From positions 1,665 to 65,664 of the forward strand of contig JAWOHH010000087.1 in assembly GCA_046496215.1 (NCBI GenBank): a DNA stretch of 64,000 nt, written 5' to 3'. The notes beneath the pieces are model-generated. The model did not search any database, was not told the origin of the DNA, and worked only from the letters and a program-made list of their open reading frames with translations. The DNA is from Desulfobacterales bacterium (GTDB lineage Bacteria; Desulfobacterota; Desulfobacteria; Desulfobacterales; SpSt-501). Made by a program: the position numbers and the translations under genes. Of this stretch, positions 591-63,113 are shown in pieces (within the stretch, counting starts at the first letter, position 1; each line of letters opens with the position of its first letter).

Positions 591-638
591 CAGCCTGAGA
601 CGCTTTTCGATATAGACCCACGGTAACGAGTGCCCATA

Positions 639-3578
639 ATGAATCGACGCACGTTCCTCAAGCTGGCCGGCTGCGGCAGCGTCGCCTTCGCGGCCGGCTG
701 CGGCCCGGAATCCCCGAAACACCTCCACAGCCCGGTGCATGCACCGGAGGACATGGTCACCGGCCAGGCGACCTGGTACGCATCCACCTGCCGGGAGTGT
801 CCGGCGGGTTGCGGCATCCTGGCCAAAAACCGTGAAGGCCGGGCGATCAAGCTCGAAGGCAACCCGCTGCACCCGATCAACCGGGGTGCCCTGTGCATGC
901 GCGGGCAGGCCGCCCTGCAGGCGGTGTATCACCCGGATCGGCTGAGGACCCCGCTTCTGAAGGACGGTTTAGGGTTTCGGCCGGTATCGTTTGCCGAGGC
1001 CCGGGCGCGGCTGGCCGCCGAGGCCCGGGAGGCCGCCCACCGGGGAGCGGGCCGGGTGAGCCTTGTGACCGAGGTCGTGGGCGAGGCCCAGCTGGAGCTT
1101 TTTCGGACCGCCCTGGCCAACTGGAACTCCTCCGGGCCCGTGGTCTTCGAGCCCTTTGCCTACGAGGCCTTGAAGACGGCCAACCGCGTGGTCTTCGGGG
1201 TGGACGGCCTGGTTTCTTACCGCCTCCAGGATGCCGACCTGCTGGTCTCCTTCGGCGCCGATTTCCTGGAAACGTGGCTCTCGCCGGTGGAGTATGCATG
1301 GAAGTTCAAGGCCATGCATGCGCTGCGGGGATCCGAGAAGGGGGCCTTCATCCACATCGGCCCCTGCCAGGCGCTGACGGGCGCAAACGCCGATCACTGG
1401 CTTGCCTGCGCCCCGGGCGGCGAAGCGGCAATCGCCCTGGGCCTGGTGCGGCGGATGATCGCCTCCGGCCGGGCCGCGGGGCTTGAGGCTGAATCCCGCA
1501 ACGCCCTTGCCAAGGCGGTGGCGGATTACACGCCGGAGCGGGTGTCGGCGGTATCCGGCATCCCCGCCGTTCAACTGGACGTGCTGGCCGCGCGCCTCGC
1601 CGAGGCCCGCCGGCCGCTCTTGCTCGGCGCGGGAAGCGGGCATGGGGCGGCCGACGGCCTGAAGGCCGACATCGCCGTCAACCTGCTGAACGGCCTGCTC
1701 GACCCGCAGCTCAAGCGGATCGACGCCGTGGACCGCCACCGCGTGGAGACAGCCGACCGGCGCGCGGTCGTGGCAGACGAATTCAAGCGCGTTGCCGGCG
1801 GAGGGGTGGACCTGCTGCTCCTGAACAACGTCAACCCGGTCTTCTCCCTCCCGGCCGCAAGCGGCATCCGCCAAGCCGTGGAAGAATCCAAGGCCTTCGT
1901 GGTGAGCTTCGGCGCATTCATCGACGAGACCGCACAGCTTGCCGACCTGATTCTGCCCACATCCCTGCCGCTTGAAACCTGGGACGTCTACAGCGGCCGA
2001 ACTTCGACGCTATCGACCCTTCAACCCGCCATGGGGCGGGTTTTCGAGACCCCGAGCTTAGGCGATGTCATCCTGGCGGCCGGGTTCGAAGAAAATAAGC
2101 GGCCGGCGGCGGATTACCGGTCTTTCGTCGCCGATCGGCTTCAGAAGGCGGGCCGGGTCCACGACGAAGTCGCCTGGCTGCGGATGCTGCAGCAGGGCGG
2201 GCTCTTTGCCGAGGCCCCCCCGGGCCCGCCGCCCAAAATGCTGCCGGGCCCCATTCCCCCGAGCCTGCTCGCACCCGGCGAGCCGCCGCCGGCCGGCCTG
2301 GCCTTCGCGGCGCTGCCCTCCCTGCGCTTCTTCGACGGCCGCGGGGCGAACCGGCCCTGGCTTTGCGAAATCCCCGATCCGGTCTCGCGGGTCGCGTGGC
2401 AATCCCCGGTTTGGGTCCACCCGCAGACGGCGCGCGCCCAGGGGCTGGCCCCAGCGGAGATCGTGCGGATCAGCACACCGGAGGGAAGCATCGAAGCCCC
2501 GGTCTACATCACCGAAACGGTGCACCCCGGCCTTGCGACCATGGGTGTAGGACAGGGCCATACCGCTTACGGCCGCTGGGCGCAAAACGTGGGTGGCAAC
2601 CCCTTCGCCGTCCTGCCGGCCGGCCTGGACCCGGCGTGCGGCGGCCCGAGCTTCACCGCCCAAGGGGTGCGCATGGAAAAAACCGGCCGTCGCGTGGAAC
2701 TCGCCCATACCGACGGCAGCAGAACTCAGCACGGCCGCACCTTCCTGCTGACGGTGGCGCTGGAGGAGCTGCGCCGGGGCGCGCCCCGCCCGAAGACCGG
2801 ACTCACCATGGGCGATTTCCCCCTCACCCTGCCCCTGGCCGAAGGCTATGACCCCAGCCGCGATTTCTACCCGCCCCACGCGCACGACGGCTACCGCTGG
2901 GGCATGACCGTGGATCTGGACCGCTGCATCGGCTGCGGGGCCTGCGCCGCGGCCTGCTACGCCGAGAACAGCATCGGCATCGTCGGGGAGAAGTTGATCG
3001 CCCAGGGCCGCGAGATGGCATGGTTGGAAGTCGTGCGCTACCACGATGAGCGCCGCCTGGAGCGGGTGATGTTTCTGCCCATGCTCTGCCAGCACTGCGA
3101 CAACGCCCCCTGCGAGTCGGTCTGCCCCGTCTACGCCCCCCATCACTCGGCCGAGGGGATCAACAACCAGATCTACAACCGCTGCATCGGGACCCGCTTC
3201 TGCTCTCAGAACTGCCCCTACAAGGTGCGGCGCTTCAACTGGTTTGACTGGGAGTGGCCTGAGCCCATGAACCTGCAGCTCAACCCGGATGTCACCGTGC
3301 GCAGCAAGGGGGTCATGGAGAAGTGCTCCTTCTGCATCCAGCGCATCAAGACCGCGCGCACCCGGGCCAAGAACGAGAAGCGGCCGATCGGCGACGGCGA
3401 GATCGTCCCGGCGTGCGTCCAGACCTGCCCGACCGGGGCCCTGGTGTTTGGCAGCCTCATGGACAAGACGAGCCGGGTGCGCCGACTGGCCGAGGACCCC
3501 CGGGCCTACCAGGCCATTGGCTACCTGAATACCAAGCCGGCGGTGATCTATCTCAAGAAAGTGCTGCACGAGATTTAA
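639..3578 (+). CDS. actB: Alternative complex III subunit ActB (MopB-like module fused to a 4x[Fe-S] ferredoxin module), Tat signal
   Basis: Twin-arginine signal 'MNRRTFLKLAG..AAGC'. Large MopB-like N-terminal part, and a C-terminal part with several CxxCxxCxxxCP ferredoxin motifs ('CIGCGACAAAC', 'CQHCDNAPCESVCP', 'CIGTRFCSQNCP', 'CSFC..CVQTCP'). Followed by NrfD-like, DUF3341-like and ActF-like genes. ATG 639 preferred over the GTG at 630. Confidence 0.85.
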   Translation: MNRRTFLKLAGCGSVAFAAGCGPESPKHLHSPVHAPEDMVTGQATWYASTCRECPAGCGILAKNREGRAIKLEGNPLHPINRGALCMRGQAALQAVYHPDRLRTPLLKDGLGFRPVSFAEARARLAAEAREAAHRGAGRVSLVTEVVGEAQLELFRTALANWNSSGPVVFEPFAYEALKTANRVVFGVDGLVSYRLQDADLLVSFGADFLETWLSPVEYAWKFKAMHALRGSEKGAFIHIGPCQALTGANADHWLACAPGGEAAIALGLVRRMIASGRAAGLEAESRNALAKAVADYTPERVSAVSGIPAVQLDVLAARLAEARRPLLLGAGSGHGAADGLKADIAVNLLNGLLDPQLKRIDAVDRHRVETADRRAVVADEFKRVAGGGVDLLLLNNVNPVFSLPAASGIRQAVEESKAFVVSFGAFIDETAQLADLILPTSLPLETWDVYSGRTSTLSTLQPAMGRVFETPSLGDVILAAGFEENKRPAADYRSFVADRLQKAGRVHDEVAWLRMLQQGGLFAEAPPGPPPKMLPGPIPPSLLAPGEPPPAGLAFAALPSLRFFDGRGANRPWLCEIPDPVSRVAWQSPVWVHPQTARAQGLAPAEIVRISTPEGSIEAPVYITETVHPGLATMGVGQGHTAYGRWAQNVGGNPFAVLPAGLDPACGGPSFTAQGVRMEKTGRRVELAHTDGSRTQHGRTFLLTVALEELRRGAPRPKTGLTMGDFPLTLPLAEGYDPSRDFYPPHAHDGYRWGMTVDLDRCIGCGACAAACYAENSIGIVGEKLIAQGREMAWLEVVRYHDERRLERVMFLPMLCQHCDNAPCESVCPVYAPHHSAEGINNQIYNRCIGTRFCSQNCPYKVRRFNWFDWEWPEPMNLQLNPDVTVRSKGVMEKCSFCIQRIKTARTRAKNEKRPIGDGEIVPACVQTCPTGALVFGSLMDKTSRVRRLAEDPRAYQAIGYLNTKPAVIYLKKVLHEI

Positions 3579-3583
3579 AAACA

Positions 3584-3694
3584 GGGTTCAAGGAGTCGAG
3601 GGTCCAAGGGGTCAGGGGTCAAGTGAAAAGCGAAACGCCTGCGGCCATCCAATTGTTTACCCTCGAACCCTTGACCCCCTACACCCTTGTACCC
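3584..3694 (+). repeat. Intercistronic G-rich/C-rich complementary arms (long imperfect hairpin) between actB and actC
   Basis: The 5' arm is built from GGGTYCAAGG-like units (3584-3623) and the 3' arm from the complement (3659-3694). For example, GGGGTCAAG 3615-3623 pairs perfectly with CTTGACCCC 3670-3678, and 3584-3593 pairs 9/10 with 3685-3694. Confidence 0.4.
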
Positions 3695-3704
3695 TGAAAA
3701 AGCC

Positions 3705-5009
3705 ATGACCAAGCTCACCTACGCCACGATCGACCAGACGGTCCTGAAGACCCTCGAGCCGCCGCGCAAATCCTATTGGGTGGCGGTGGCGCTGATGTTC
3801 TGCGGCGTGCTGCTCGGAGCGGGCGCCTGGGCCTACCAGATCGCGACCGGCATCGGCGTGGGCGGCCAGAACATCCCGGTGGCCTGGGGCACCTACCTGA
3901 TCAACTTCGTCTTTTGGGTCGGAATCGCGCACTCCGGGACCCTGATCTCGGCCATTCTGCACCTGTTCCGCGCCGGCTGGCGCAACCCCATCGCACGGGC
4001 GGCCGAAACCATGACCGTGTTTGCCGTCTGCTGCGCCGGACTGTTTCCCTTCATCCACCTGGGCCGGGTCTGGCAGGTCTACTACATGCTCCCGTTTCCC
4101 AACCAGCGGCTGCTCTGGCCGAACCTTCTCTCCCCGCTCATGTTCGACGTGGTGGCCATCAGCACCTATCTCACCGTGAGCTCGCTCTTCTGGTACACGG
4201 GGCTGCTGCCGGATTTGGCCGTCGTGCGCGACCGCTCGACGGGCATCAAGCACAGGGTCTTCCGCGCGCTCTCCCTGGGCTGGACCGGGGCCCACCACCA
4301 GTGGCTCAACTACGGCCGCGGGTATCTCTTTTTTGCCGCGCTGGCCACCCCACTGGTCATCTCGGTGCACAGCGTCGTCTCCTGGGACTTTGCGCTTGGG
4401 GTGATCCCCGGCTGGCACACGACGATCTTCGCTCCCTACTTCGTGGCCGGTGCGATCCACTCGGGCCTGGCCATGGTCTTGACCCTCATGATCCCCCTGC
4501 GGCGCATCTTCCGGTACGAGGCCATCATCACCCTGCACGTGCTGGAAAACGTGGCCAAGACCATGGTGCTGACCGGCCTGATCGTCGGCCTGGCCTACGG
4601 CACGGAGTACTTCATCGCCTGGTACAGCCATAACCCGGTCGAGTGGGAGTCCTTCCGCTGGCGGGCCATGGGCGATTATGCCTACGGGCTGTACTTCATG
4701 GCCATATGCAACGTGCTGGTCCCCCTGCTCTTGCTGATCAAGGCCGTACGGACGAACATCCCCTGGCTCTTCGCGATCTCGCTCGTGGTCAACTTCGGGA
4801 TGTGGTGGGAGCGCTTCGTCATCATCATCGGCGGCGTCGCCCATGATTTCGCGCCCCATGCCTGGGGGCTGTATGCGCCTCGGTTGGTGGAGTACTGCAT
4901 CATGATCGGCAGTTTCAGCCTTTTCTTCTTCCTGTTCCTGCTCTTCTGCAAGCACCTGCCCTCGGTCTCCATGACCGAAATGAAGGAGACCCTCACCCAT
5001 GCCGACTGA
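3705..5009 (+). CDS. actC: ACIII membrane quinol-interacting subunit ActC (NrfD/PsrC family)
   Basis: About 434 aa polytopic membrane protein with NrfD-like sequence, immediately after actB. Start uncertain: ATG 3705, or TTG 3687 as in the ORF track. Confidence 0.8.
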   Translation: MTKLTYATIDQTVLKTLEPPRKSYWVAVALMFCGVLLGAGAWAYQIATGIGVGGQNIPVAWGTYLINFVFWVGIAHSGTLISAILHLFRAGWRNPIARAAETMTVFAVCCAGLFPFIHLGRVWQVYYMLPFPNQRLLWPNLLSPLMFDVVAISTYLTVSSLFWYTGLLPDLAVVRDRSTGIKHRVFRALSLGWTGAHHQWLNYGRGYLFFAALATPLVISVHSVVSWDFALGVIPGWHTTIFAPYFVAGAIHSGLAMVLTLMIPLRRIFRYEAIITLHVLENVAKTMVLTGLIVGLAYGTEYFIAWYSHNPVEWESFRWRAMGDYAYGLYFMAICNVLVPLLLLIKAVRTNIPWLFAISLVVNFGMWWERFVIIIGGVAHDFAPHAWGLYAPRLVEYCIMIGSFSLFFFLFLLFCKHLPSVSMTEMKETLTHAD

Positions 5010-5505
5010 GGCCCACGTCATGGGGCTTTTTCGCGACGAGACCCAGGCGGCAGCGGCCATCATGGAGCTGGCGGCCGCCGGTTTCCGTTTCCGGCGCGCC
5101 CACACCCCGGTCCCGAGCCACCGGATCTTGGAGGCGCTCGGGTCGAAGAAGAGCCGGGTGGGCTGGTTCACCCTGGCGGGCGGGATCGTCGGGTTCTTCG
5201 CGGGCTTTGCTCTGGCCATCTTCACCTCGACCCAGTGGAACCTCATCGTCAGCGGAAAACCGATCGTCTCCCTGATCCCCTTCTTCATCGTGGGGTTCGA
5301 GTTCACGATCCTCTTCTCGGTCTTCGGCAACGTGGTCGGGCTGCTCCTCTGTGCACGGCTGCCGGACCCCCAGGGGCTTGCGATGTACGACCCGCGCTGC
5401 TCGGGCGAGCACTTCGGGGTACTCGCCGCCTGCGAGAGCGGACGCCGGGACGACTTGATGGATTTCTTCCGGGGCAGGGGCGGGGAGGTCAGGTCTTTCG
5501 AATGA
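4999..5505 (+). CDS. actD: ACIII subunit ActD (DUF3341-like)
   Basis: 168 aa. Pattern 'GLF..ETQAAAAI..L..AGF....AHTPVP.H.I.EALG' plus two TM helices '..GKP..S.IPFFIVGFEFTILF' is typical of DUF3341/ActD. Overlaps the actC end by 11 nt, and its stop overlaps the actF start (ATGA). Confidence 0.75.
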   Translation: MPTEAHVMGLFRDETQAAAAIMELAAAGFRFRRAHTPVPSHRILEALGSKKSRVGWFTLAGGIVGFFAGFALAIFTSTQWNLIVSGKPIVSLIPFFIVGFEFTILFSVFGNVVGLLLCARLPDPQGLAMYDPRCSGEHFGVLAACESGRRDDLMDFFRGRGGEVRSFE

Positions 5506-6722
5506 ACATGCACGCCTCATCGTTCTCCGCGGCCGCCCCGGGGCGCCGTGTCTGGGTGCCGGCGGCCGTGCTGGCCGCCGCCGGGATGGCCGCCTTCCTG
5601 TTCGGCGCCGCAGGCGAGCACCCCGGCCGGGCCTGGCAGGCTTATCTCATCAACTTCCTGCTGTGGTCGTCCGTCGCCCAGGGCGCTGTGCTCTTCGCGG
5701 CCGTCACGCGCGTCACGGCCGCGCGCTGGAGCGCTCCGCTGGAGGGGCTGTCGGGCGCGTTCGCAGGCTTCTTCCCGCTCTCCTTGGTGCTGTTTATCGC
5801 CCTGGTCTTCGGCGGCTCCCACGTCTTCCCATGGGTGGCCGAAGACCTGCACGGCAAGGAGTCCTGGCTGAACGTGCCCTTTGTCCTGGCCCGCAACGGG
5901 GCCGGCCTGCTCATCCTCTACGGCGTCGGCTTCATGTTTCTGCGCCAGGCGTTGCGGCTGAGAATGGGGCCCGAACCCGCCCGATCCGGCCTGAGGCGGT
6001 TGTTGGCCGGCAGCGGACCGGGCAGTCCGGATGAAGCCGAGCGCATCCGCGGCCGCATGAACCGCTGGGCCGGGCTCTATTGCTTGCTCTTCGCGCTGGT
6101 GCTCAGCCTGATCGGCTTCGACCTCGTCATGAGCACCGACCCGCACTGGTACTCGACCCTTTTCGGCGCCTACCATTTCGTCAAGGCGTTTTACCTGGGG
6201 CTGGGCGGCCTGATCATCCTGGCCGCCGCGGTCGCGCTGCGGCACGGCCGACACTCCGGCCTCGAACCCCGTCATTTCCACGACATCGGCAAGCTCTTCT
6301 TCGCTTTCTGCCTGCTGTGGGCTGACTTTTTCTACGTCCAGCTGACGGTGATCTGGTACGGCAACATCCCGGAGGAGACCCATTACGTCATCCTGCGGAC
6401 CATGCTGCCCCCCTGGCGGCCGCTGGCCTGGACCGTTTTCACCATCGTTTTCATCATCCCGTTCATCCTCCTGATCAACAAGCGCATCAAGACCGTCCCC
6501 GCAGCGGTCATGGCCCTCTGCAGCTTGGTGATCGTGGGGCTGTGGCTGGAGCTCTTGCTGCTGGTGGGACCGCCGCTGAACCACGGCGCTGCCGAGCTGC
6601 CGCTGGACGTGAGCGATGCCATCGTGTTCCTGGGGTTTTTGGGCCTGATGGTGATGGCCGTCGCCGCCATGCTGCGGACTTTCCCGGAGCTGCTCCCCAC
6701 AGCCCGGTCTCCGAAAGACTAA
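5502..6722 (+). CDS. actF: ACIII second NrfD-like membrane subunit ActF
   Basis: ATG 5502 overlaps the actD stop. 406 aa polytopic protein with 'HWYSTLFGAYHFVKAFY' and 'WYGNIPEE' blocks, typical of quinol:cytochrome c oxidoreductase quinone-binding subunit 2. Confidence 0.75.
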   Translation: MNMHASSFSAAAPGRRVWVPAAVLAAAGMAAFLFGAAGEHPGRAWQAYLINFLLWSSVAQGAVLFAAVTRVTAARWSAPLEGLSGAFAGFFPLSLVLFIALVFGGSHVFPWVAEDLHGKESWLNVPFVLARNGAGLLILYGVGFMFLRQALRLRMGPEPARSGLRRLLAGSGPGSPDEAERIRGRMNRWAGLYCLLFALVLSLIGFDLVMSTDPHWYSTLFGAYHFVKAFYLGLGGLIILAAAVALRHGRHSGLEPRHFHDIGKLFFAFCLLWADFFYVQLTVIWYGNIPEETHYVILRTMLPPWRPLAWTVFTIVFIIPFILLINKRIKTVPAAVMALCSLVIVGLWLELLLLVGPPLNHGAAELPLDVSDAIVFLGFLGLMVMAVAAMLRTFPELLPTARSPKD

Positions 6723-6732
6723 ACGGCGAGCG

Positions 6733-7266
6733 ATGGAACCCGAAAAGAAAGATATGGCCGAACGAACCCGAGCCGGAATTCTGATCAGCCTGGGGGCCGT
6801 TGTCTCCATCGCCGCCTTTCTCTATTTTTTTTATGCCTGGCCGGAGCCGATCGGCCCGGAGCAGCCGATCCCCTTCAGCCACAACGTCCACAGCGGCGTG
6901 AAACTGATCCAGTGCCAGTACTGCCACCCCTACGTGGCCTACTCGAATTTCCCGGGCATGCCGCCGGTGGAGAAGTGCCTGCACTGCCACATCTACATCA
7001 TCCCGGAGTTGCCCTGGATCCGCAAGGAGCACCAGTATTTCAACACCGGCACCCCGACCCCCTGGGTCAAGGTCAACTATGTCGCCGAACACGTGGTGTT
7101 CAACCACCAGCGGCACATCAACAGCGCCGTCGCCTGCGAGCAGTGCCACGGCGAGGTCGGCCGCTCCCAGCGCCTGCCCCAGAAGATCTGGCGCATGGGC
7201 GAGTGCCTGGGGTGCCACCACGAGAAGAAGGCCAGTGTGGACTGCTGGCTGACGTGCCACAATTGA
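6733..7266 (+). CDS. actA: Membrane-anchored multihaem cytochrome c, ActA-like (4 CxxCH + 1 CxxxCH)
   Basis: N-terminal TM helix. Haem motifs CQYCH, CLHCH, CEQCH, CLGCH and a terminal CWLTCH. Last gene of the ACIII block. Confidence 0.8.
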   Translation: MEPEKKDMAERTRAGILISLGAVVSIAAFLYFFYAWPEPIGPEQPIPFSHNVHSGVKLIQCQYCHPYVAYSNFPGMPPVEKCLHCHIYIIPELPWIRKEHQYFNTGTPTPWVKVNYVAEHVVFNHQRHINSAVACEQCHGEVGRSQRLPQKIWRMGECLGCHHEKKASVDCWLTCHN

Positions 7267-7393
7267 GTCTCGCTCCGCCTGGCGGCCAACCTCTGCGTTG
7301 CGCTGCATTTTGCGGTTGCTGCGGCGTACAGGGAGTACGCCTCGCAACGCGAAATTTGCGCGCCTTGATGTTGACCTCCGGGCGAAGCGAGAC
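7267..7393 (+). repeat. 127-bp imperfect palindromic element between actA-like gene and ccoN
   Basis: Nested inverted repeats: GTCTCGCT 7267-7274 / AGCGAGAC 7386-7393; GCGTTGCG 7295-7302 / CGCAACGC 7343-7350; central GGCGTAC-AGGGA-GTACGCC 7323-7341. Confidence 0.45.
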
Positions 7394-7447
7394 AGTGTTA
7401 GGAAAGTTCCAACACCTCTCGGGGCAACCCGGTAACAGGAGTTCGAA

Positions 7448-8818
7448 GTGAGCACCGTGGAAGAGAGCATCGCGCACGGCAACCAGACAGCCAAGGCATT
7501 CACGCTGACCTCGGCCCTGTGGTTCGCCTTCGCCACCACCTTCGGCATGATCGCCGCCGGCTACCTGGTGGCCCCCGATTTCATGGCCAACGTCGAGTAC
7601 ATCCACTTCGGCCGGGTGCGGCCGATGCACGTCAACGCTGTCCTCTTCGGCTTCGTGACGCCGGGGCTCATCGCCGCCGCCTTCTACTACATCCCGCGGC
7701 TCTTGAGGACCCGGCTATACAGTGAGCGGCTGGGGGTTTTCTCGGCGGTGTTCTGGAACATCAGCGTCGCGGCCGGGATGGCGGGAGTCTCCCTCGGCTA
7801 CAGCCAAGGGCGCGAATACGCCGAACTCCCGTGGCTGGTCGACCTCCTGGTAGTGATCAGCTTCGGCCTGGTCATTGTAAACTTTTTAATGACCATCCGG
7901 CGGCGCACCGAGCCGATCCTGTACGTCTCCATCTGGTACGCCGCCGCCGCCGTCGTGCTGACGGCCTGCACCTACTGCCTGGGCAACGTGATCTGGAAAC
8001 CCGACACCGGCGCCCTCTCCGGGATCCCGGACGCCATCCTGCTGTGGTTCTACGGCCACAACGTGTTCGGGCTGCTGCTCTCGCCCATGGCGCTCGCGGT
8101 GGCCTACTACGTGCTGCCCATCGCCACCCGCAGCCCGCTCTACAGCCACACCCTGTCGCTGATCGGCTTCTGGTCGCTCATCATCGTCTACACCCACATC
8201 GGCACCCATCACCTGCTGCAGGTGCCGGTGCCGACCTGGCTCAAGACCATCTCCATCGTGGACAGCGTCGCCATGGTCATCCCGGTCATGGTCTTCCTGA
8301 TCAACATCTGGTACACGGTCAAGGGCAAGCTCGGCGACGTCCATGCCGACATCGGCGCCAAGTTCGTCTTCACGGGCACCATCTACTATTTCTTCGTCAA
8401 CATCCAGGGCTCCATGATGGCCCTGCCGGACGTGCAGCGCATCACCCATTTCAACAACTGGGTGGTCGGCCACGCCCACATGGGGGTGCTGGGGTTCGCC
8501 GGCGTGACAGCTCTGGGCGGGCTTTACTTCATTCTGCCGCGGATCACCGGGCGCCCTCTCTACAGCCGGTTCCTGGCGGATTTTCAGTACTGGCTCGTTT
8601 TGATCGGGATCACGGGCTTCTCCATCGTGCTGACCATCGTCGGCCTGATCCAGGGCCAGGCCTGGTATAATGGGGAGACGCTCTACCGGACCCTGCCGGG
8701 GATCCAGCCCTATTACATCACGCGGCTCTCCTTGGGCCTGCTCATCATGGTGGGAGCCTACACCGGCCTCTACAACGTGGCCCGGTCCCTTTATTTCAAC
8801 CGCGGAGCCGACGCATGA
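7448..8818 (+). CDS. ccoN: cbb3-type cytochrome c oxidase subunit I
   Basis: GTG start preceded by AGGAG. 456 aa, 12-TM haem-copper oxidase with 'FYGHNVFGL', 'THIGTHHLL' and 'WVVGHAHMGVLGF' His-ligand blocks characteristic of CcoN. Confidence 0.9.
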   Translation: MSTVEESIAHGNQTAKAFTLTSALWFAFATTFGMIAAGYLVAPDFMANVEYIHFGRVRPMHVNAVLFGFVTPGLIAAAFYYIPRLLRTRLYSERLGVFSAVFWNISVAAGMAGVSLGYSQGREYAELPWLVDLLVVISFGLVIVNFLMTIRRRTEPILYVSIWYAAAAVVLTACTYCLGNVIWKPDTGALSGIPDAILLWFYGHNVFGLLLSPMALAVAYYVLPIATRSPLYSHTLSLIGFWSLIIVYTHIGTHHLLQVPVPTWLKTISIVDSVAMVIPVMVFLINIWYTVKGKLGDVHADIGAKFVFTGTIYYFFVNIQGSMMALPDVQRITHFNNWVVGHAHMGVLGFAGVTALGGLYFILPRITGRPLYSRFLADFQYWLVLIGITGFSIVLTIVGLIQGQAWYNGETLYRTLPGIQPYYITRLSLGLLIMVGAYTGLYNVARSLYFNRGADA

Positions 8819-9747
8819 GAATGACCCCTGCCGTCATCCTCGTCGGCGTTCTTTCGCTGCTCGCAGCCATCGCCCTGATTATGGTTTACTGGCCCTATGC
8901 GCAGCAGGACCTGACCCCCTCGGAGATTTTCCGGGCGCGCACCATCGAAGAGGAAGCCGGGCGCGCCATCTACATCCAAAACGGATGTGTCTATTGCCAC
9001 AGCCAGTCGGTCCGGGCCTTCGACTGGGACATGGGCTCCGAGCGCATCGCCCAATCCGGGGACTACATCGCCGACGAACCCATTCAGCTCGGCTCGCAGC
9101 GCACCGGCGTGGACCTGTCGCAGGCCGGCGGGGAGCACCCGGACGACTGGCACATCGCCCATTTCATCAACCCGCGCTATACCCGGCCCAGCTCGATCAT
9201 GCCCCCGTTCGAATGGCTGGGGATGGAGCGCATCCGGACCCTGACGCGCTATGTGCAGAGCCTGGGCCTCAAGGCCGCAGACCGGCGCATGGAGCGCCAG
9301 AACCACTGGAAAGCCGAATCGATCAACGCCTACGAGGCCGGGGTGGACGCCAACGTGCGCTGGCTGGCCGAGCAGGTGCCGGAGGGATGGCGCAGCATCC
9401 CGAACCCCTACCCGACCTCGGCCGCCGCCCTGCAGCGCGGCCACAGAATTTACCAATACTACTGCATCGGCTGCCACGGCCCGATCGGGGACGGGATGGG
9501 CCCTGCCCAGCCCTGGATCTACCCGCCGCCGCTCAACTTCACCGCTTTGAAGGGGCGCGAGATCTCAGGCGGCATCATATACTACCAGCTCATGAACGGT
9601 ATCACCGGTACCGCCATGCCCTACTTCAAGCGCGACCTCGAATCCCAAAAGATCTGGGAGGTCGGGGACTACGTCGCCTATTATTTCATCAACCAGAGCG
9701 ATGCCAACCATGAGCCGCGGGGCATCGATGCGGCATGGGAACCCTGA
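8815..9747 (+). CDS. ccoO: CcoO (monohaem subunit II) fused to an extra C-terminal class I cytochrome c domain
   Basis: Start overlaps the ccoN stop. N-terminal TM plus 'NGCVYCHSQ..GSQRTGVDL..HF.NPR...P.SIMPPF' is a CcoO signature. Second domain carries 'CIGCHGP...MP' (CcoP-like haem domain). Confidence 0.8.
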   Translation: MRMTPAVILVGVLSLLAAIALIMVYWPYAQQDLTPSEIFRARTIEEEAGRAIYIQNGCVYCHSQSVRAFDWDMGSERIAQSGDYIADEPIQLGSQRTGVDLSQAGGEHPDDWHIAHFINPRYTRPSSIMPPFEWLGMERIRTLTRYVQSLGLKAADRRMERQNHWKAESINAYEAGVDANVRWLAEQVPEGWRSIPNPYPTSAAALQRGHRIYQYYCIGCHGPIGDGMGPAQPWIYPPPLNFTALKGREISGGIIYYQLMNGITGTAMPYFKRDLESQKIWEVGDYVAYYFINQSDANHEPRGIDAAWEP

Positions 9748-9814
9748 CATACGAGTGATGTGTAATGAGCAACGAGTGAATGCAAACCAAAACCTGAAGT
9801 GAAGGGTGCTTGAG

Positions 9815-10075
9815 ATGTACTTCCCGTATTTCATCGCATACATGGCGGTCGGCTTTGCGGTCAGCCTGGGCGTGTTCTTCTGGGCGCTGAACCGCGGGCA
9901 GTTCAGAGACCAGGAGCGGGCGCGCTATTTGCCCCTCGAGCGCCGGGAAAGCGCCCCGGCGGCCAGGCTGACCCGCAAGGGGCTGATCGAAACCGCCGGG
10001 TTGTTCGCACTCGCCTGCTGTGGCCTGGCCGGCAGCGCCGCGGTGATCGTGTTCGCCCTCACCCACGCCCGGTAG
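9815..10075 (+). CDS. ccoS: CcoS/FixS-like cbb3 oxidase maturation protein with an extra C-terminal TM helix
   Basis: 'FFWALNRGQFRDQERARYLPL' matches the CcoS motif (F.WA..sGQFdD.e). ATG 9815 preferred over GTG 9806. Confidence 0.65.
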   Translation: MYFPYFIAYMAVGFAVSLGVFFWALNRGQFRDQERARYLPLERRESAPAARLTRKGLIETAGLFALACCGLAGSAAVIVFALTHAR

Positions 10076-10094
10076 ACATAGGAACTCTGAGACC

Positions 10095-10370
10095 ATGCGC
10101 ATTTTCGACATATTGAACATCCAGCATTTCGTCCTGTACCTGTTCCCGGCGCTGGCGTTCGTTTTCCTGTTCGCGGCCGGGCTCGGCTACACCGCCACCC
10201 GCCGCAAGGGTTCCGAGGAGCGGCTGACCCGCATCGTCGAGGAGTACCCCGGGGGCATCCAGGGCCGCAACGCACCGTTTCCGCTCTTTCTGACCCTGGT
10301 CATCGCCGGAACCATACTCTGGTCCCTGCTTTACATCATCTTAACTGGCAGGCTGGGAGTGAAAATTTGA
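10095..10370 (+). CDS. Small 2-TM membrane protein resembling the CcoP N-terminal (FixP_N) domain
   Basis: 'EEYPGGIQGRNAPFPLFLTLVIAGTILWSLLY' parallels the FixP_N block 'HEWDGI.E.nNPLPrWWl..FyaTIvf...Y'. By-eye similarity only. Confidence 0.45.
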   Translation: MRIFDILNIQHFVLYLFPALAFVFLFAAGLGYTATRRKGSEERLTRIVEEYPGGIQGRNAPFPLFLTLVIAGTILWSLLYIILTGRLGVKI

Positions 10371-10639
10371 GCATGCACCCGGAACAGAGCGCATCGTCGG
10401 CAAAAACCTGGATCCTGGTCGCAGCCATGCTGGCCGTCGTCTTTTTCCAGGGGTGGCTGGCCCACACCGTCATCGGCGACCTCGGACAGCCCGACTGGGA
10501 CTACCGCCCGATCCCGGATGTCTACGGCGAGTCGGCTTACGCTATGTACCCTGCGCTGCCCTACCCTCAGCATGTCGCGGCCCCCCAGGGGGTGGAGGCC
10601 TATCCCTCCAAGATCCTGCCGATTCAGGGGGTTCCATGA
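10367..10639 (+). CDS. Hypothetical single-TM protein, translationally coupled within the cco cluster
   Basis: 90 aa, one hydrophobic helix. Start overlaps the upstream stop and its stop overlaps the downstream ATG (ATGA). No recognisable family. Confidence 0.4.
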   Translation: MSMHPEQSASSAKTWILVAAMLAVVFFQGWLAHTVIGDLGQPDWDYRPIPDVYGESAYAMYPALPYPQHVAAPQGVEAYPSKILPIQGVP

Positions 10640-11154
10640 AAAAGCTCCTGGGGCTGATCATCGTCCTCGTCGTTATGGTTTTGGCCGCCTACCACGCGCT
10701 GATCACCTACGACAACGAGTTCCGCTACGGCCGCATGCGCGAAACCCCGGCGGTCAAACCGCACGAGGAGCCGCTGCCGGTCATGCCCGCCGGGGTGGTG
10801 CCCGTTTCGGGCGGCGACGCCCTTTACCGCCGGACGCCGGCCGACCGGCTAACGCCCCCCGTGGCGCTTGCGGATGCTGGTGTGACCGCCCGCGGGCAGG
10901 CGGTCTATTTCACCTTCTGCGCCCAGTGCCACGGCCCGCTTCACAACGGCGAGGGTACGGTGGGCCAGAGTTTCAAGCCGCTGCCGACCGACCTGCGCAG
11001 CCAGATGGTGCAGTCGAAGCCGGCCGGCGCACTTTTTCACACCGTCAGCTATGGGATCCCCGGCGGCCGACAGCCTGCGCTCGAAACCACCATCACGGTC
11101 GAGGACCGCTGGAGCGTCGTCGCCTACGTCAAATCACTCGGGCTGCGCCCCTGA
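10636..11154 (+). CDS. Membrane-anchored monohaem class I cytochrome c (ActE-like / electron carrier)
   Basis: ATG 10636 gives 'MKKLLGLIIVLVVMVLAAY' (signal/anchor). Single 'CAQCHG' motif with a distal Met region. The ORF-track start at 10453 overlaps the upstream gene and was rejected. Confidence 0.8.
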   Translation: MKKLLGLIIVLVVMVLAAYHALITYDNEFRYGRMRETPAVKPHEEPLPVMPAGVVPVSGGDALYRRTPADRLTPPVALADAGVTARGQAVYFTFCAQCHGPLHNGEGTVGQSFKPLPTDLRSQMVQSKPAGALFHTVSYGIPGGRQPALETTITVEDRWSVVAYVKSLGLRP

Positions 11155-28677: not shown

Positions 28678-29352
28678 TTGGACGGGGTCGATATCTGGGG
28701 GATGTTCCTGCTGGGGCTGCTCGGCACCGGCCATTGCATCGGGATGTGCGGTCCGCTCATTTTCGCCTTCCCGGGCAGAACCGGCAGATTGCTGCCGCAC
28801 CTGGCATACCACCTCGGCCGAATCGCCACCTACACCGGTGTCGGGGCCGCTCTGGGGGGAATCGGCCAGATGATGGCGGGCTCCGGCGGCGACCCCGGCG
28901 GGGTCGTGGCGGTCAAGGTCGTCCTGTGGTTGGTGGCCGCTTCCCTTCTGCTGGTGCTGGGAGTGGCGCGGCTCGGGATTTTCCCTGAGCCGCGCTGGTT
29001 GAGCCTGGTCGCCCCGGACCGCATTCCCGGGTTCAAAGTCGCCCTCGAGGGCGCGACATCCGGAAGGGGGTTAGCTCCCTTTCTAGTATTGGGGCTGATC
29101 CTGGGTTTTCTGCCGTGCGGGCTCTCCTACGGCGCCTTTGCAAACGCCCTGGGGACCGCCAGCGTTCTCAAGGGCACGGCATCCACCCTGGCATTTGCGG
29201 TTGGGACCGCTCCCGGCCTCATCCTGCTGGGGACCGGGGCCTCAGCGTTGTTCAACCGCTTTCGCCGGCAGTCGGACATCCTCGCCGGCGTCCTGATGAT
29301 CCTCATGGCCGTTAAAATGGCCCACAAGGCCATTTCAATGCTCGGCGCGTAA
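28678..29352 (+). CDS. DsbD_2/UreH-like membrane protein with HCxxMCGP motif
   Basis: TTG start 9 nt after AAGGAGG. 'LLGLLGTGHCIGMCGPL' motif and ~6 TM helices, as in the DsbD_2 (PF13386-like) family. Confidence 0.55.
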   Translation: MDGVDIWGMFLLGLLGTGHCIGMCGPLIFAFPGRTGRLLPHLAYHLGRIATYTGVGAALGGIGQMMAGSGGDPGGVVAVKVVLWLVAASLLLVLGVARLGIFPEPRWLSLVAPDRIPGFKVALEGATSGRGLAPFLVLGLILGFLPCGLSYGAFANALGTASVLKGTASTLAFAVGTAPGLILLGTGASALFNRFRRQSDILAGVLMILMAVKMAHKAISMLGA

Positions 29353-58583: not shown

Positions 58584-60434
58584 GTGATGAAAATGGCCAT
58601 TCGACCCTTCAGCCTACAGGGGCGCTTTACGCTCTATCTGATCTTGCCCGTCTTGACTCTTCTGTTCGTCATAGGGCTCATCGGCTTTTTCTTCGCCCGC
58701 GACCTTTTGCTGGATCAGTGGCAGGAGTCGGCGATTCTCAAGCTCGAGCGGGCCGCTCATCAAATGGACATGCACCTGGCAGCCGTCAAGCAAGGGATCC
58801 TCCTGTTCCATGACATTTCCGGCAGCCGTCACGACGATGCGTTTCATGCGTGGGCCTTGGATCGGCTGCGGCGTCAGGAAGGCATCATCGACGCCAGGCT
58901 GAATTGGAATAGCCCCCAAGAGCAGCCCAATTCGGCCGCAGAGTCCCACCCGCCGGCGACAGGCATGGGGCACGGTGTGCGTGCCATGGGCACGGCCGGC
59001 GGCATGCGCCGCTTTCAAAGTGCGCGCATCCGCGAAATCACCGCCCCTCGTTTTGATGCCAGCGGCGCCCACGGCACCATCAGCATGGTATCGGAGCTGC
59101 TCGATGAGACCGGGGCAGACATCGGCCGGCTCGAGGTGATCGCCGACTTCGATCTGATGTTCGGCCACGTGGTGGAATCGGGCTGGTGGCAGAGCAGCAA
59201 GGCTTTTCTGGTGGACGAAAACGGGCAGATCCTCGTCTGCACGGTGCCGGGACGCCATGGAAAGATCAACGACACCGGCGACCCGCTTGAAAAAGCGACG
59301 TTTGCGGCCATGGCCGATGAAACGCGGGGCACGGTGTGGGGCGAGGGCTATCCCCCATCGGAGATCGGCGGTTTTTTCCGTCTTACCGAAGCACCGTGGT
59401 TCCTGGTGATGATCGCCCCCGGCCGCGAGATTCTATCCCCCATCATCCAGTTCCGGTGGGTCTATTCGATTGCAGTCATCGGGTTGATCCTGCTGGTCAC
59501 GGCCCTGATCCGGCTGGTCACGGGGCGCGTGGCCTCCGAGATAAAAACCGTTTCCGAAGCAGCCCTACAGCTTTCGAAGGGAAACTTCGGCGATCCTCTC
59601 CAGGTCAAAAGCCGTGATGAAGTGGGCGAGTTGACCCGCAGCTTCAACCTCATGACCAGCGATCTGCGGGAGCGTCTGCAGCTGAAGCAGGCCATGGGTC
59701 TTGCCATGGAGGTCCAGCAAAACCTGCTGCCGGCCGCAGCCCCGTCGCTGGCCGGATTCGACATCGCCGGCCGCAGCGTCTACTGCCAGGAAACGGGCGG
59801 GGACTACTTCGATTACATCTTCCGGACCGGGGACGCAGGCATTCGGCATCTGTGCATAGCCGTGGGCGATGTGGTCGGCCATGGGATATCGGCCGCCCTG
59901 CTGATGACCACCGTGCGGGCCTTGCTGCGTATCCGCCTCGACGGTCCGGGCCCCATCGGCGAGGCAGTGACCGATGTGAACCGCCTGCTGTGCCGGGACA
60001 CGGAGCCCAGCGGGAGCTTTGTGACGCTATTTCTGTTGCAGGTCGAAGAAGCCACGGGCCGCCTCGCATGGGTGCGGGCCGGTCACGACCCGGCGCTCTT
60101 TTTCTGCGCAGCGAGCGGGGAGATCCAGGAGTTGGGCGGCCCGGGAATGGCGCTGGGGGTCGAAGAGGCCTTCTCCTATCCGGTCGCCAGCCTCCCGGGA
60201 TTGGCCTCCGGCGACATCGTGCTGATCGGCACAGACGGTATCTGGGAGACCCGGAACGCGCGCTCGGAAAAATTCGGAAAAATTCGTTCCGGCGAGATCA
60301 TGCGCCGGCATCGCCAAGAGCCGTCAGCGGTGATTTTAGGGGCCGTCCTGCACTCCCTGGAGGAGTTCCGCGGAGACATGCCGCAGGAGGACGACATCAC
60401 CCTGGTCGTGTTGAAGACCGCATTCCCTGAATGA
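58584..60434 (+). CDS. Membrane sensor with periplasmic domain, HAMP domain and PP2C/SpoIIE-type serine phosphatase domain
   Basis: Two TM helices flank a ~250-aa extracytoplasmic region. HAMP '[16 protein letters not shown]'. SpoIIE blocks 'GGDYFDY', 'GDVVGHG', 'GTDGIWE', 'DDITLVVLK'. Start among GTG 58584, ATG 58587 and ATG 58593. Confidence 0.8.
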
Positions 60435-61491
60435 GCGCCAGGTCGGCCAACACCAGAGCCGCCATGCTCTCCACGATCGGCACGGCACGGGGGACGACGC
60501 AGGGGTCGTGGCGGCCCCTGGCCTCCAGGGTAACCAGCCGCCCCTCGGTATCCAGGGTTTGCTGAGCCCGGCCGATGGTGGCCGGCGGCTTGAAAGCCAC
60601 CCGGAAGAGGACGGGCTCGCCGTTGGTGATCCCGCCCTGCACCCCGCCGCTTCTGTTGGTGAGGGTCCCCAGACGCCCCTCTTTCAGCACGAACGGGTCG
60701 TTGTGTGCGCTGCCACGCATGCGGGCCCCGGCAAACCCTGAGCCGATCTCGAAGCCCTTGGTGGCCGGAATCGAGAGCATGGCCTGGGCCAGCAGGGCCT
60801 CGGCCTTGCCGAACACAGGCTCCCCCAGCCCGGCGGGCACGTTGCGGCAGACGCAAGTGACGACCCCGCCGACCGAGTCCGCCGCCTCGCGCACACGGGT
60901 GATCTCCGCGATCATGCGCTGCGCGGTTTCCGCGTGCGGGCAGCGGATATCCGTCTGGTCCACCGCCGTCCGGTCGATGCTCCGCGCATCCGTCTCCGGC
61001 GAATCGATTTCACCCACTGCGCTTACCCAGGCGACGATCTCGACTCCATATCGCATGCGCAGAAATTTTTCCGCCACCGCGCCGGCCGCCACCCGGCCGA
61101 TGGTCTCGCGCGCACTCGACCGGCCCCCGCCGCTCGCCGCCCGGATGCCGTATTTCGCCTGATAGGTGAAATCGGCATGCGAGGGACGGGGGATGCGGCT
61201 CAAATTCTCGTAGTCGGCGGGCCGCTGATCCCGGTTCAGCACGAGCAGGCCGATGGGAGTCCCCAGGGTGAGGCCGTTTTCGGTGCCGCTCAGGATGACG
61301 ACCCGGTCGGGCTCATCACGCTCGCTGGCAAGCCGGCTCTGGCCGGGCCGACGGCGGTCGAGCTGGCGCTGAATGTCGGCCTCGGAGAGCTCGAGCGTAG
61401 AGGGGCAGCCGTCGATGACGACCCCAACCCCCCGCGCGTGGGACTCCCCGAACGTGGTTGCCCGAAACAGGGTCCCGATCGTGCTGAACAT
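60397..61491 (-). CDS. aroC: Chorismate synthase
   Basis: ATG 61491 gives '[30 protein letters not shown]'. 'GRSSARET' and 'RHDPCV' blocks. Confidence 0.9.
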
Positions 61492-61684
61492 TGGCTTGAC
61501 CCCTTCCATCGCGGCAGGATGCCGCTCCCACACATGGTTTGACAGCAGTCCCCCTGATACCCCCGGTCGAGGGATTGTGGAGCTCTCGTTCAGGCTTATA
61601 GTAGGGTAAAGGGTTTTGCAAACGGTTTAGAACATCAGCAAAATTTCATCAAGTCGATAATCCAAACGCCATGAGGCTCTCGAT

Positions 61685-62425
61685 ATGAAACGTTATTTCG
61701 ATATTGCGTTGTTAGCGATCGCCGGCGCGTTGGGGGCTGCCCAGCCGGCCGCCGGCCAGACTGCCGCCACGGGCGCAGTGATTCCTGCTATCGATGCGGC
61801 GGCGCCGGCCTCTTTTGAAACCGCCACCTTCGCCTTGGGCTGATTCTGGGGCCCGGACTCCAGGTTCGGAGTCCTCGACGGGGTGATCCGCACGCGGGTC
61901 GGCTATGCCGGCGGCAGGCTGGAAAACCCGACTTACCACAAGCTCGGCGACCACACCGAGACCCTGCAGTTGGACTACGATCCTTCGAAAATATCCTATG
62001 AGAGGCTATTAGAAATCTTCTGGCAGGAGCACGACCCCGCCAGCCGGTCGTGGTCCGCGCAGTACAAGGCGGCCGTGTTCTTTCAGGGGGACGAGCAGAA
62101 GCGCCTGGCGCTTGAAACCCGCGATCGAGTGGCGGCCAAGCTCGGAAAGCCGATCCGCACCGAAATAATCCCCTTCAGCCGGTTCTACCCGGCCGAGGCC
62201 TACCACCAGAAATACTACCTGAGGGGCAACAAGCGCTTTCTGAAGGAGCTCCAACGCTATTTCCCGCAGGAGGTCGACCTTATGAACTCAACCGCAGCCG
62301 CGCGGCTCAATGGATATTTGGGCCGCAGCGGCAGCACCGAAGCCCTCGAGGCCGAGATCGACCGCTATGTCCTTTCCGAGGAGGGGCGCAGCGAGCTCTT
62401 GCGCCTGGCGGGAGCCAAGCGGTAA
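61685..62425 (+). CDS. msrA: Peptide-methionine (S)-S-oxide reductase MsrA, predicted selenoprotein (UGA at 61841-61843) with N-terminal signal peptide
   Basis: ATG 61685 and the ORF-track fragment 61883-62425 are in the same frame, interrupted only by TGA 61841. Read-through gives 'ATFALG-U-FWGPDSRFGVLDGVIRTRVGYAGG', i.e. TGA replaces the catalytic Cys of GCFWG. Downstream hairpin. 'MKRYFDIALLAIAGALGAA' is signal-like. Confidence 0.75.
61855..61874 (+). promoter_or_regulatory. Candidate bacterial SECIS hairpin for msrA UGA
   Basis: GGACTCC-AGGTTC-GGAGTCC: perfect 7-bp stem, 6-nt apical loop containing GGU. The loop begins 18 nt after the UGA. Confidence 0.55.
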
Positions 62426-62435
62426 GAAGGTATTG

Positions 62436-63113
62436 ATGAAACCGGCCACCGACACCCCAACCGCTGCGGTGCCTTGCGGATCCTGTGCGGAGATGCCTGC
62501 AACCGCCGGGGAGATCCTGGTAGCCGGCGTTTATGCCGCCGTGGACGAGGCAGCCGGCCGTGAAATTGCCCGGTTGAAGCGCGAGGAGGGGATCGTCCCC
62601 AGCTGCAGGCGGGGCTGTTCCGGCTGCTGCTGCGGGCAGCACATCCAGACAAATGCCCTGGAAGCCCACGTTTTGGGTCGATTCATCAAGCGCACCTTCT
62701 CGCCGCGGCAGATCGAAGGACTCAAGCGGCGGACCCATGCTTGGCATCTCACCGATGAGGCTCGCCGCGGCCGGCCAGGGGATGCCATCATACACGAAGA
62801 ATACCTGCCCAGTGACACCCTTTGCTGCCCAATGCTGGTCGAGCAGGTCTGCAGCGCCTACCAGGTTCGGCCGGTCATCTGCCGGACGCATTATGTCAGT
62901 TCGAACCCCTCCGCGTGCCAGCCGCCCAACGGGCGCCACCCGGCCGGTGACGCGCCGGTGACACTCACTTCCATCATCGAGGCAACCTCTCCCCTTGCGG
63001 ACGCCTTGCGGGCCGGAATCGAAACCACCGGCTGCGACTATTCCCGGTCCATCATGCTCCTGCCGCATTGGTTGGCGATCGAGCTGGGATGGGATTTATC
63101 CGAACCAGGTTGA
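62436..63113 (+). CDS. YkgJ/UPF0153-like Cys-rich putative Fe-S/zinc-binding protein
   Basis: 'CRRGCSGCCC' (CxxCxxCC-type) and later 'CCPML....C..Y..RP.ICR' motifs of the PF03692-like family. ATG 62436 after GAAGG. Confidence 0.6.
   Translation: MKPATDTPTAAVPCGSCAEMPATAGEILVAGVYAAVDEAAGREIARLKREEGIVPSCRRGCSGCCCGQHIQTNALEAHVLGRFIKRTFSPRQIEGLKRRTHAWHLTDEARRGRPGDAIIHEEYLPSDTLCCPMLVEQVCSAYQVRPVICRTHYVSSNPSACQPPNGRHPAGDAPVTLTSIIEATSPLADALRAGIETTGCDYSRSIMLLPHWLAIELGWDLSEPG

Follow-up and report, generated by a model that had tools for sequence, protein, structure and literature searches.

When a TGA stands at the catalytic codon of an otherwise continuous methionine sulfoxide reductase frame, does it end the protein, mark a defect, or encode selenocysteine (Sec)? 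The question is raised by positions 61685–62425, on the forward strand of a 64-kb stretch of DNA from a Desulfobacterales bacterium (64,000 nucleotides, positions 1,665–65,664 of contig JAWOHH010000087.1, assembly GCA_046496215.1; hereafter the window), in which an msrA frame of 247 codons runs from ATG 61685 to TAA 62423–62425 with TGA 61841–61843 as its sole interruption and no other disruption. We read 61685–62425 as one intact gene for a 1-Cys-type Sec-containing peptide-methionine (S)-S-oxide reductase (Sec-MsrA), made as a precursor with a cleavable signal peptide, and we give this joint reading a probability of roughly 0.8; that the gene truly encodes a Sec-MsrA and has a functional selenocysteine insertion sequence (SECIS) we hold to be highly probable. 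A preliminary description of this DNA, made from its letters, had located the ATG, the TGA and a hairpin at 61855–61874, and its coordinates and sequences all proved correct.

That description had also set the TGA at the catalytic Cys of the GCFWG motif, and this was confirmed: TGA replaces the Cys in the context ..FETATFALG-[TGA]-FWGPDSRFG.., so that the motif reads G52-U53-F54-W55-G56 in the window protein, and relatives carry TGA at the same codon. Such a TGA is present in 73 related loci, which represent at least eight bacterial lineages, and the in-frame protein is conserved on both sides of it (Desulfobacterales, Dehalococcoidia, Synergistaceae, Bacillota/Clostridia, Chloroflexia, Anaerolineales, Myxococcales, Akkermansiaceae/Verrucomicrobiales and unclassified Proteobacteria). 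The species-representative genome collection yielded 29 loci with TGA at the catalytic codon and one further locus with GGA, and a metagenome scan that started from a Cys form gave 44 TGA, 29 TGC and 7 TGT loci. At each TGA locus the upstream frame is open and encodes the conserved segment ..[IL]PP[IL]DxxAPxxxETATFALG, which in the Cys forms runs on into the MsrA domain. With the same codon affected and conserved frames on both sides, a nonsense mutation or a sequencing error cannot explain the pattern. The Sec form, which had been put forward as rare, is in fact common within this clade. The GGA (Gly) codon lies at L018:2193–2195, in a Desulfohalobiaceae metagenome-assembled genome (MAG; CAZUBS010000277.1) that keeps the hairpin downstream, and may reflect a T-to-G error of assembly or polishing, or an inactive copy. 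At locus L007 (JBFYWX010000267.1) the read-through product appears to end about 56 residues past the Sec codon while the tblastn match spans residues 1–176, which suggests a frameshift or an assembly error in that MAG.

Profile searches with the 246-aa product, for which Cys was substituted at the TGA, identified the protein clearly. The Pfam family PF01625 (PMSR) matched residues 46–184 (E = 4.7e-42, 144.3 bits against a cut-off of 23.7), TIGR00401 msrA scored 128.1 bits against a cut-off of 108.1, and PF20939, described as [quoted passage not shown], matched residues 198–232 (E = 1e-06, 28.8 bits against a cut-off of 23.7). The best matches among solved structures were to the selenoprotein MsrA of Clostridium oremlandii (CoMsrA; 4u66, 4lwj and others) with E-values of about 1e-54 (best 1.3e-54), residues 45–240 of the window protein aligning with residues 8–203 of the CoMsrA chain (offset +37). 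In this alignment Cys/Sec16 of CoMsrA corresponds to U53, Tyr47 to Y84, Glu55 to E92, Gln89 to Q126, Tyr90 to Y127, His137 to H174 and Tyr140 to Y177, and these active-site residues are invariant or nearly so across 34 aligned family members (alignment A3). The 246-aa product is free of Cys and thus has no resolving cysteine; 36 of 65 Sec forms are likewise Cys-free, and all 28 of 28 Cys forms carry the catalytic Cys alone. An AlphaFold (AF2) model of P0071, a 53%-identical Cys homolog, had a mean predicted local distance difference test score (pLDDT) of 91.7 and a template modeling (TM) score of 0.90 on CoMsrA. These CoMsrA-type sequence features (UGA as nucleophile, helical domain, no Cys) place the window gene in a known selenoprotein family, as had been claimed for it at the outset.

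A short motif, IPAIDAAAP in the window protein, opens the mature domain; its P41 is invariant in alignment A3, P34, I36 and D37 are nearly so, and in the P0071 model the corresponding IPPID is ordered against the domain (pLDDT about 86–97). The motif ([IL]PP[IL]DxxxP) stands some 13 residues before Sec, upstream of the segment that aligns with CoMsrA.

Public records render these genes poorly. The listing of open reading frames (ORFs) splits the window msrA into 61685–61843 (52 aa) and 61883–62425 (180 aa, GTG start), and our protein-database search returned dozens of close matches of 175–180 aa that cover only the C-terminal 70–73% of the query, beside full-length forms of about 230–320 aa with GCFWG or "GWFWG"; the truncation by automated annotation that had been foreseen is thus widespread. 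The "GWFWG" proteins from JGI are Sec-TGA genes in which the gene caller rendered the codon as Trp and also overran the true TGA stop (as at L082). The truncated entries come from NCBI, ENA and JGI; those called with Trp include P0027, P0029, P0056, P0066 and others, with L082:851–1810 as a locus, and the call for P0029 overruns its true TGA stop into a spurious 50-aa tail. The window msrA and dozens of public homologs are consequently recorded either as 175–180-aa fragments that lack the active site or with a catalytic Trp, so that the selenoproteome and the methionine sulfoxide reductase counts are underestimated for Desulfobacterales, Dehalococcoidia, Verrucomicrobia and others.

The hairpin downstream of the UGA codon

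The window hairpin has a free energy (dG) of −11.8 kcal/mol and is the minimum-free-energy element of the local fold; its stem begins 11 nt after the UGA, which is the spacing of the minimal E. coli fdhF element, and its loop begins 18 nt after the UGA. In the bacterial SECIS consensus of a recent review (PMC13188914), such an element has an apical loop of 3–9 nt and an upper stem of 4–16 bp, a G within the first two loop nucleotides, with G or U usually next, a UGA-to-loop distance of 16–37 nt and a free energy no higher than −7.5 kcal/mol. The window hairpin lies inside all four limits (7 bp; 6-nt loop A-G-G-U-U-C; 18 nt; −11.8 kcal/mol), and strict criteria that allow no mismatch were passed at the same position by 48 of 65 distinct Sec sequences, most of the others having a hairpin with a mismatch. 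Compared with the bSECISearch model and the E. coli fdhF SECIS, the element is alike in lying directly downstream of the UGA and in having its stem, loop, loop G, spacing and free energy in range; it differs from the fdhF SECIS in lacking a bulged U, and from the consensus in that relatives use a second register with a GUU or GGUUC loop and that recognition by SelB is here predicted.

We asked how far the hairpin depends on codon choice by recoding the ten codons around it synonymously 5000 times with the codon usage of the window itself. The native sequence folded at −13.2 kcal/mol against −7.78 ± 2.41 for the recodings, of which 0.62% were as stable, and it is rare codons that supply the loop G and the stem, namely AGG (6% of Arg codons) and GGA (11% of Gly codons). 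For the Sec forms overall the native mean was −12.5 kcal/mol against about −7.6 for uniform recodings. The codon before Phe ends in G in all 65 of 65 Sec sequences whatever amino acid it encodes (AGG, CGG, CAG, GAG or CTG), and this third-base G gives rise to an invariant loop GU, which at alignment columns 24–25 is present in 65/65 Sec sequences versus 3/23 distinct Cys sequences.

Two pairing registers coexist among the relatives, the window type with the loop AGGUUC and a commoner type with the loop G(G)UU(C), offset by one column; hairpins were therefore analyzed sequence by sequence, and pairs were counted separately on the 52 sequences of the other register. In this set 78% of cells pair, against at most 64% in any slid register (optimum at slide 0), and compensatory changes occur at three pairs, with 17 double-change cells against 5.5 ± 1.8 in shuffles. 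The encoded amino acids change along with the stem (DS..GV, DS..GS, DA..GL/GQ/GH).

The preliminary description had called the hairpin SECIS-like and of the right geometry, and its conserved position, compensatory changes, dependence on rare codons and invariant loop GU all agree with this. The comparison of orthologs that it had proposed went partly its way, in that the TGA is conserved, the hairpin co-varies and the TGT-Cys forms have lost the hairpin, and partly not, in that a group of TGC-Cys lipoproteins (GCFWAPD) retains a stable stem, GACUCC/GGAGUC, lacking the loop G. The members of this group are the metagenome loci L085–L121, and the stem lies within the first 45 nt after the TGC. 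A "fossil" SECIS is a familiar concept, and the GCFWAPD stem looks like one left after a recent switch from Sec to Cys; these relatives, with the stem kept and the loop G lost, form a clean natural series for Sec-to-Cys conversion.

The predicted export signal and rival readings of the locus

By inspection, the N-terminus of the window protein has the layout of a signal peptide, with an n-region MKRYFD, an h-region IALLAIAGALGAA (13 residues) and a c-region QPAAG; candidate cleavage sites lie between GAA and QP and between AAG and QT, with small residues at −3 and −1. The amino acids of this signal are conserved in the loci L001, L002, L003 and L007, all four of which also keep the ATG and a purine-rich ribosome-binding site, and within DIALLAIAG the window and L007 differ at six codons, all synonymously, so that the segment must be translated. 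In the P0071 model residues 1–24 form a detached helix and residues 25–46 a low-confidence linker.

To place this signal among its relatives, we surveyed the N-termini of 63 distinct Sec forms with a complete upstream frame. A strongly hydrophobic segment lies 40–70 residues before Sec in 53 of the 63, and six have a weaker one, some of them with a twin-arginine motif (L011, L142 and L145; e.g., SRRIFLKG in L142 and L145) or a lipobox-like Cys; four lack a hydrophobic segment (L016, L020, L032 and L128). Lipoboxes were seen as LHACD, LYGCD and AAGCS in Sec forms and as LAGAC and ILPGC in Cys forms. Altogether, about 59 of 63 Sec forms begin with a sequence that looks like an export signal, be it a signal peptide, a lipobox or a twin-arginine motif. 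The signal peptide proposed earlier is thus borne out by its n-h-c layout, by synonymous conservation in the closest relatives and by lipobox and twin-arginine (Tat) counterparts across the clade; it had been thought unusual, and judged from these predicted N-termini an export signal is the norm for the clade. We consider it likely that the window Sec-MsrA is exported, and the protein is probably a periplasmic variant of Sec-MsrA.

SECIS-directed Sec insertion is the established mechanism for bacterial SECIS elements, and the window gene would use it as follows. Translation would start at ATG 61685, as the ribosome-binding site and its conservation suggest; the hairpin at 61855–61874 would recruit SelB-GTP-Sec-tRNA(Sec) at UGA 61841, so that Sec would be inserted and the chain not terminated, as the comparative evidence indicates. 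The signal peptide would then route the chain through SecYEG, and signal peptidase I would cut near residue 19 or 24, leaving a periplasmic enzyme of about 222–227 aa. By homology with CoMsrA, the Sec53 selenolate of this enzyme would attack Met-S-sulfoxide in envelope proteins and become a selenenic acid, which, as the protein has no cysteine, would have to be reduced directly by an outside thiol donor.

Several findings weigh against reading 61685–62425 as a single gene for an exported Sec-MsrA. A dinucleotide shuffle of the whole segment gave no significance to its fold (z = −0.89), a test that is uninformative since a GC-rich sequence will fold in any case; from the raw codon alignment of 30 sequences RNAalifold derived no meaningful consensus helix (−1.8 kcal/mol), because the two pairing registers coexist in it; and no Rfam family covers the hairpin at gathering or permissive thresholds, which gave chance-level matches only. 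Since the GCFWAPD Cys group has kept its stem, stem stability alone is no proof of current function, and the stem may partly be inherited sequence or reflect coding constraint and not present SECIS function. We found no selA, selB, selD or tRNA-Sec within the 64-kb window (ARAGORN, 0 tRNAs; Pfam scans of 51 called genes), and no tRNA-Sec in 60 related loci, all of them short. There is no thioredoxin-like partner near msrA and none that is thioredoxin-like by Pfam among the 51 called genes of the window, and the relatives show no conserved reductant gene beside msrA (no thioredoxin, DsbD or CcdA cluster). Lastly, an in-frame GTG at 61778 (V32) could in principle yield a cytoplasmic product.

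This last point belongs to an alternative in which the Sec-MsrA is real and is not a soluble periplasmic protein, the hydrophobic segment being an uncleaved membrane anchor or translation starting at the GTG to give a cytoplasmic enzyme like CoMsrA. It would fit with the absence of a periplasmic reductant gene close by, with the four Sec forms that have no hydrophobic N-terminus, with the characterized enzyme being cytoplasmic and glutaredoxin-dependent, and with cleavage sites (GAA before Q, AAG before Q) that are acceptable and not textbook AXA, signal cleavage being here a prediction from sequence. However, an h-region of 13 residues is short for a membrane-spanning helix, the GTG has no clear ribosome-binding site, the layout of MKR followed by a hydrophobic stretch is kept with synonymous substitutions in the closest relatives and so is translated, and three kinds of export signal occur across the clade, where the adjoining MsrBs are exported too; we therefore regard this alternative as unlikely.

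As for the UGA itself, TGA terminates 34 of the 51 called genes of the window and is a genuine, ordinary stop there, so that the source genome has no general code in which TGA is sense. This makes it very improbable that the UGA is read by a near-cognate tRNA (Trp or Cys) and not as Sec, a notion for which the lack of Sec machinery within the 64 kb and the W that some pipelines give at the codon might be cited; those W calls overrun the true TGA stop too and are artefacts, Trp as nucleophile would be inactive, and the SECIS-type hairpin with its invariant loop GU goes specifically with TGA. A pseudogene, with the TGA as nonsense mutation or sequencing error, is barely credible in view of the same TGA in 73 independent loci of many phyla with frames intact on both sides, a hairpin that is conserved and codon-constrained and a frame that is otherwise undisrupted, even though standard ORF calling splits the gene and Sec machinery is absent from the window. 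There is hardly anything to be said for the 180-aa ORF (GTG 61883–62425) as the true product and 61685–61843 as a separate small secreted peptide, for although both ORFs have start codons and many database entries have 175–180 aa, the product would have neither nucleophile nor GxFWG motif and would miss the first beta-strand of the fold, and the segment before the TGA, IPPIDxxAPxxETATFALG, is conserved in all relatives and continuous with the domain in Cys forms.

Related systems, neighboring genes and genomic setting

The closest characterized counterpart of the proposed exported Sec-MsrA is CoMsrA from Clostridium (Alkaliphilus) oremlandii OhILAs (PDB 4LWJ, 4U66), a 1-Cys-type selenoprotein of 209 aa with Sec16 as its only redox residue and an essential extra C-terminal helical domain, whose activity exceeds that of its Cys mutant about 20-fold and which is recycled by glutaredoxin, not thioredoxin (PMC4333827). 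The two proteins share Sec in GCFWG, the absence of any other cysteine, the catalytic residues and the PF20939 domain. They differ in that CoMsrA has no signal peptide and carries Sec at residue 16, whereas the window protein has a 44-residue N-terminal extension made up of signal peptide, linker and the IPAIDAAAP motif, and is predicted to act outside the cytoplasm. CoMsrA, as the only characterized bacterial Sec-MsrA, is cytoplasmic and glutaredoxin-dependent; if most of the relatives found here are exported, the usual home of this selenoenzyme would be the cell envelope of anaerobes, and what reduces a selenenic acid in the periplasm would become a testable question.

MsrA is listed among the established selenoprotein families of bacteria, with GUFWG/H as its motif and Syntrophobacter fumaroxidans as one of its carriers (PMC1794560, Table 3; PMC13188914), and the window gene resembles those survey members in family and in coming from the anaerobic, selenoprotein-rich Deltaproteobacteria. 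The passages searched in two reviews and the 2006 survey make no mention of signal peptides, lipoboxes, Tat motifs or a pairing with exported MsrB for Sec-MsrA, and a limited full-text literature search for a periplasmic selenoprotein or a Sec-MsrA with a signal peptide returned nothing relevant. The Sec-MsrA family is known, then, and what the characterized example does not cover is the localization and hence the reductant, the export signal and the IPPID extension being the points of difference. To a selenoprotein specialist a Sec-MsrA would in itself be no surprise; the breadth of the exported clade, the systematic mis-annotation and the periplasmic recycling of a cysteine-free selenoenzyme seem to us worth recording.

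Exported methionine sulfoxide reductases of the Cys type offer a second comparison. Neisseria PilB, Haemophilus influenzae MsrAB and Streptococcus pneumoniae MsrAB2 are likewise exported or surface-anchored and serve envelope repair (PMC9404787, PMC3914529). Several relatives of the window gene adjoin or are fused to an exported MsrB. Those three enzymes use Cys and are usually MsrA-MsrB fusions whose thioredoxin-like partner, fused or dedicated, is fed by DsbD/CcdA, whereas the window gene encodes a stand-alone Sec enzyme with no thioredoxin domain and no adjacent partner. The molybdoenzyme MsrP (of MsrPQ) is alike in its presumed repair of methionine sulfoxide in envelope proteins (PMC10653988); its fold and cofactor are unrelated and its electrons come from the quinone pool via MsrQ, so that it is a functional analog only.

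The commonest neighbor of msrA in the relatives is an MsrB gene with a lipobox or Tat signal of its own, which in 18 loci stands immediately upstream in the same orientation. Sensor kinases lie near msrA in 7 loci, and some loci hold fusions of MsrB to MsrA(Sec) or a membrane-anchored canonical MsrAB together with a sensor kinase. In L139, L141, L144 and L147 the fusion gene has its in-frame TGA in the MsrA half and encodes a bifunctional MsrBA selenoprotein. In L134:273–2635 and L145:210–2572, a lipobox- or Tat-type Sec-MsrA is immediately preceded by a HAMP/HisKA sensor kinase and a canonical Cys MsrA-MsrB fusion anchored in the membrane, so that one such locus encodes two different extracytoplasmic MsrA enzymes, possibly under two-component control.

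Tentatively, and at somewhat less than even odds, we speculate that these genes belong to a large undescribed clade of extracytoplasmic Sec-MsrAs (secreted, lipid-anchored or Tat-exported) that is widespread in anaerobic sediment and soil bacteria of many phyla, often encoded just downstream of an exported MsrB, in which the single Sec would mostly be the sole redox residue and its selenenic acid would have to be recycled outside the cytoplasm, by a reductant other than glutaredoxin/glutathione. If this were true, there would be a new envelope electron pathway that feeds a selenoenzyme.

The features of msrA and of the window that bear on it are collected in Table 1.

Table 1. Positions in the window of msrA, its parts and other features discussed in the text.
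Feature	Coordinates	Strand	Evidence
msrA, full coding sequence, 246 aa + TAA, selenocysteine as residue 53	61685..62425	+	Single frame with one internal TGA; profile and PDB matches
Shine-Dalgarno-like GAGG, 8-nt spacer before ATG 61685	61673..61676	+	Sequence reading; closest relatives have GAGG/GGAG at the equivalent place
Predicted Sec-type (SPase I) signal peptide, residues 1–19 or 1–24	61685..61756	+	Sequence inspection; conservation in L001/L002/L003/L007
IPAIDAAAP motif (consensus [IL]PP[IL]DxxxP), start of mature domain	61781..61807	+	Alignment A3; P0071 model
MsrA catalytic domain, residues 46–184	61820..62236	+	PF01625; active-site residues aligned to CoMsrA
UGA read as Sec, residue 53, nucleophile of the G-U-FWG motif	61841..61843	+	Same-codon TGA in 29 genome-collection and 44 metagenome loci, flanks conserved in frame
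SECIS hairpin, 7-bp stem GGACUCC/GGAGUCC, loop AGGUUC	61855..61874	+	bSECIS criteria, recoding test, loop GU, compensatory changes
C-terminal helical domain typical of the selenoprotein MsrA subfamily (core, residues 198–232)	62276..62380	+	PF20939; CoMsrA alignment through residue 240
Cys-rich 225-aa ORF, start 10 nt past msrA stop	62436..63113	+	Sub-threshold CxxCxxCC PF03692, E = 0.025
CcdA/DsbD_2-family membrane protein	28678–29352	+	PF13386, E = 3e-38
Respiratory gene cluster	630–11154	+	982-aa molybdopterin/4Fe-4S protein, NrfD-type subunit, multihaem cytochrome c, haem-copper oxidase subunit I, FixO/cbb3-type cytochrome c subunits

In the window, msrA lies between the chorismate synthase gene (aroC, 60397–61533, minus strand) and the Cys-rich ORF, after which comes a TauE-family gene on the minus strand. 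This arrangement, with aroC upstream and the Cys-rich ORF downstream, is found only in the four closest relatives (L001, L002, L003 and L007, all Desulfobacterales/Desulfobacteraceae MAGs). No terminator-like site was found between msrA and the Cys-rich ORF, and from this layout the two are probably co-transcribed. The ORF has the motifs CGSC.., GCSGCCCG and LCCP.., and the CxxCxxCC domain that it matches is YkgJ-like.

A six-frame screen of the window for other genes with an in-frame TGA was noisy (94 candidates at 63% GC), and gene calling with Pfam brought no further selenoprotein candidate to light. The CcdA/DsbD_2 protein is the only candidate in the window for trans-membrane reducing power, standing 33 kb from msrA with no thioredoxin-like neighbor. 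The respiratory gene cluster points to an oxygen-reducing chain; if a Desulfobacterales-like genome encodes such a chain, this would go well with a need to repair oxidative damage in the envelope.

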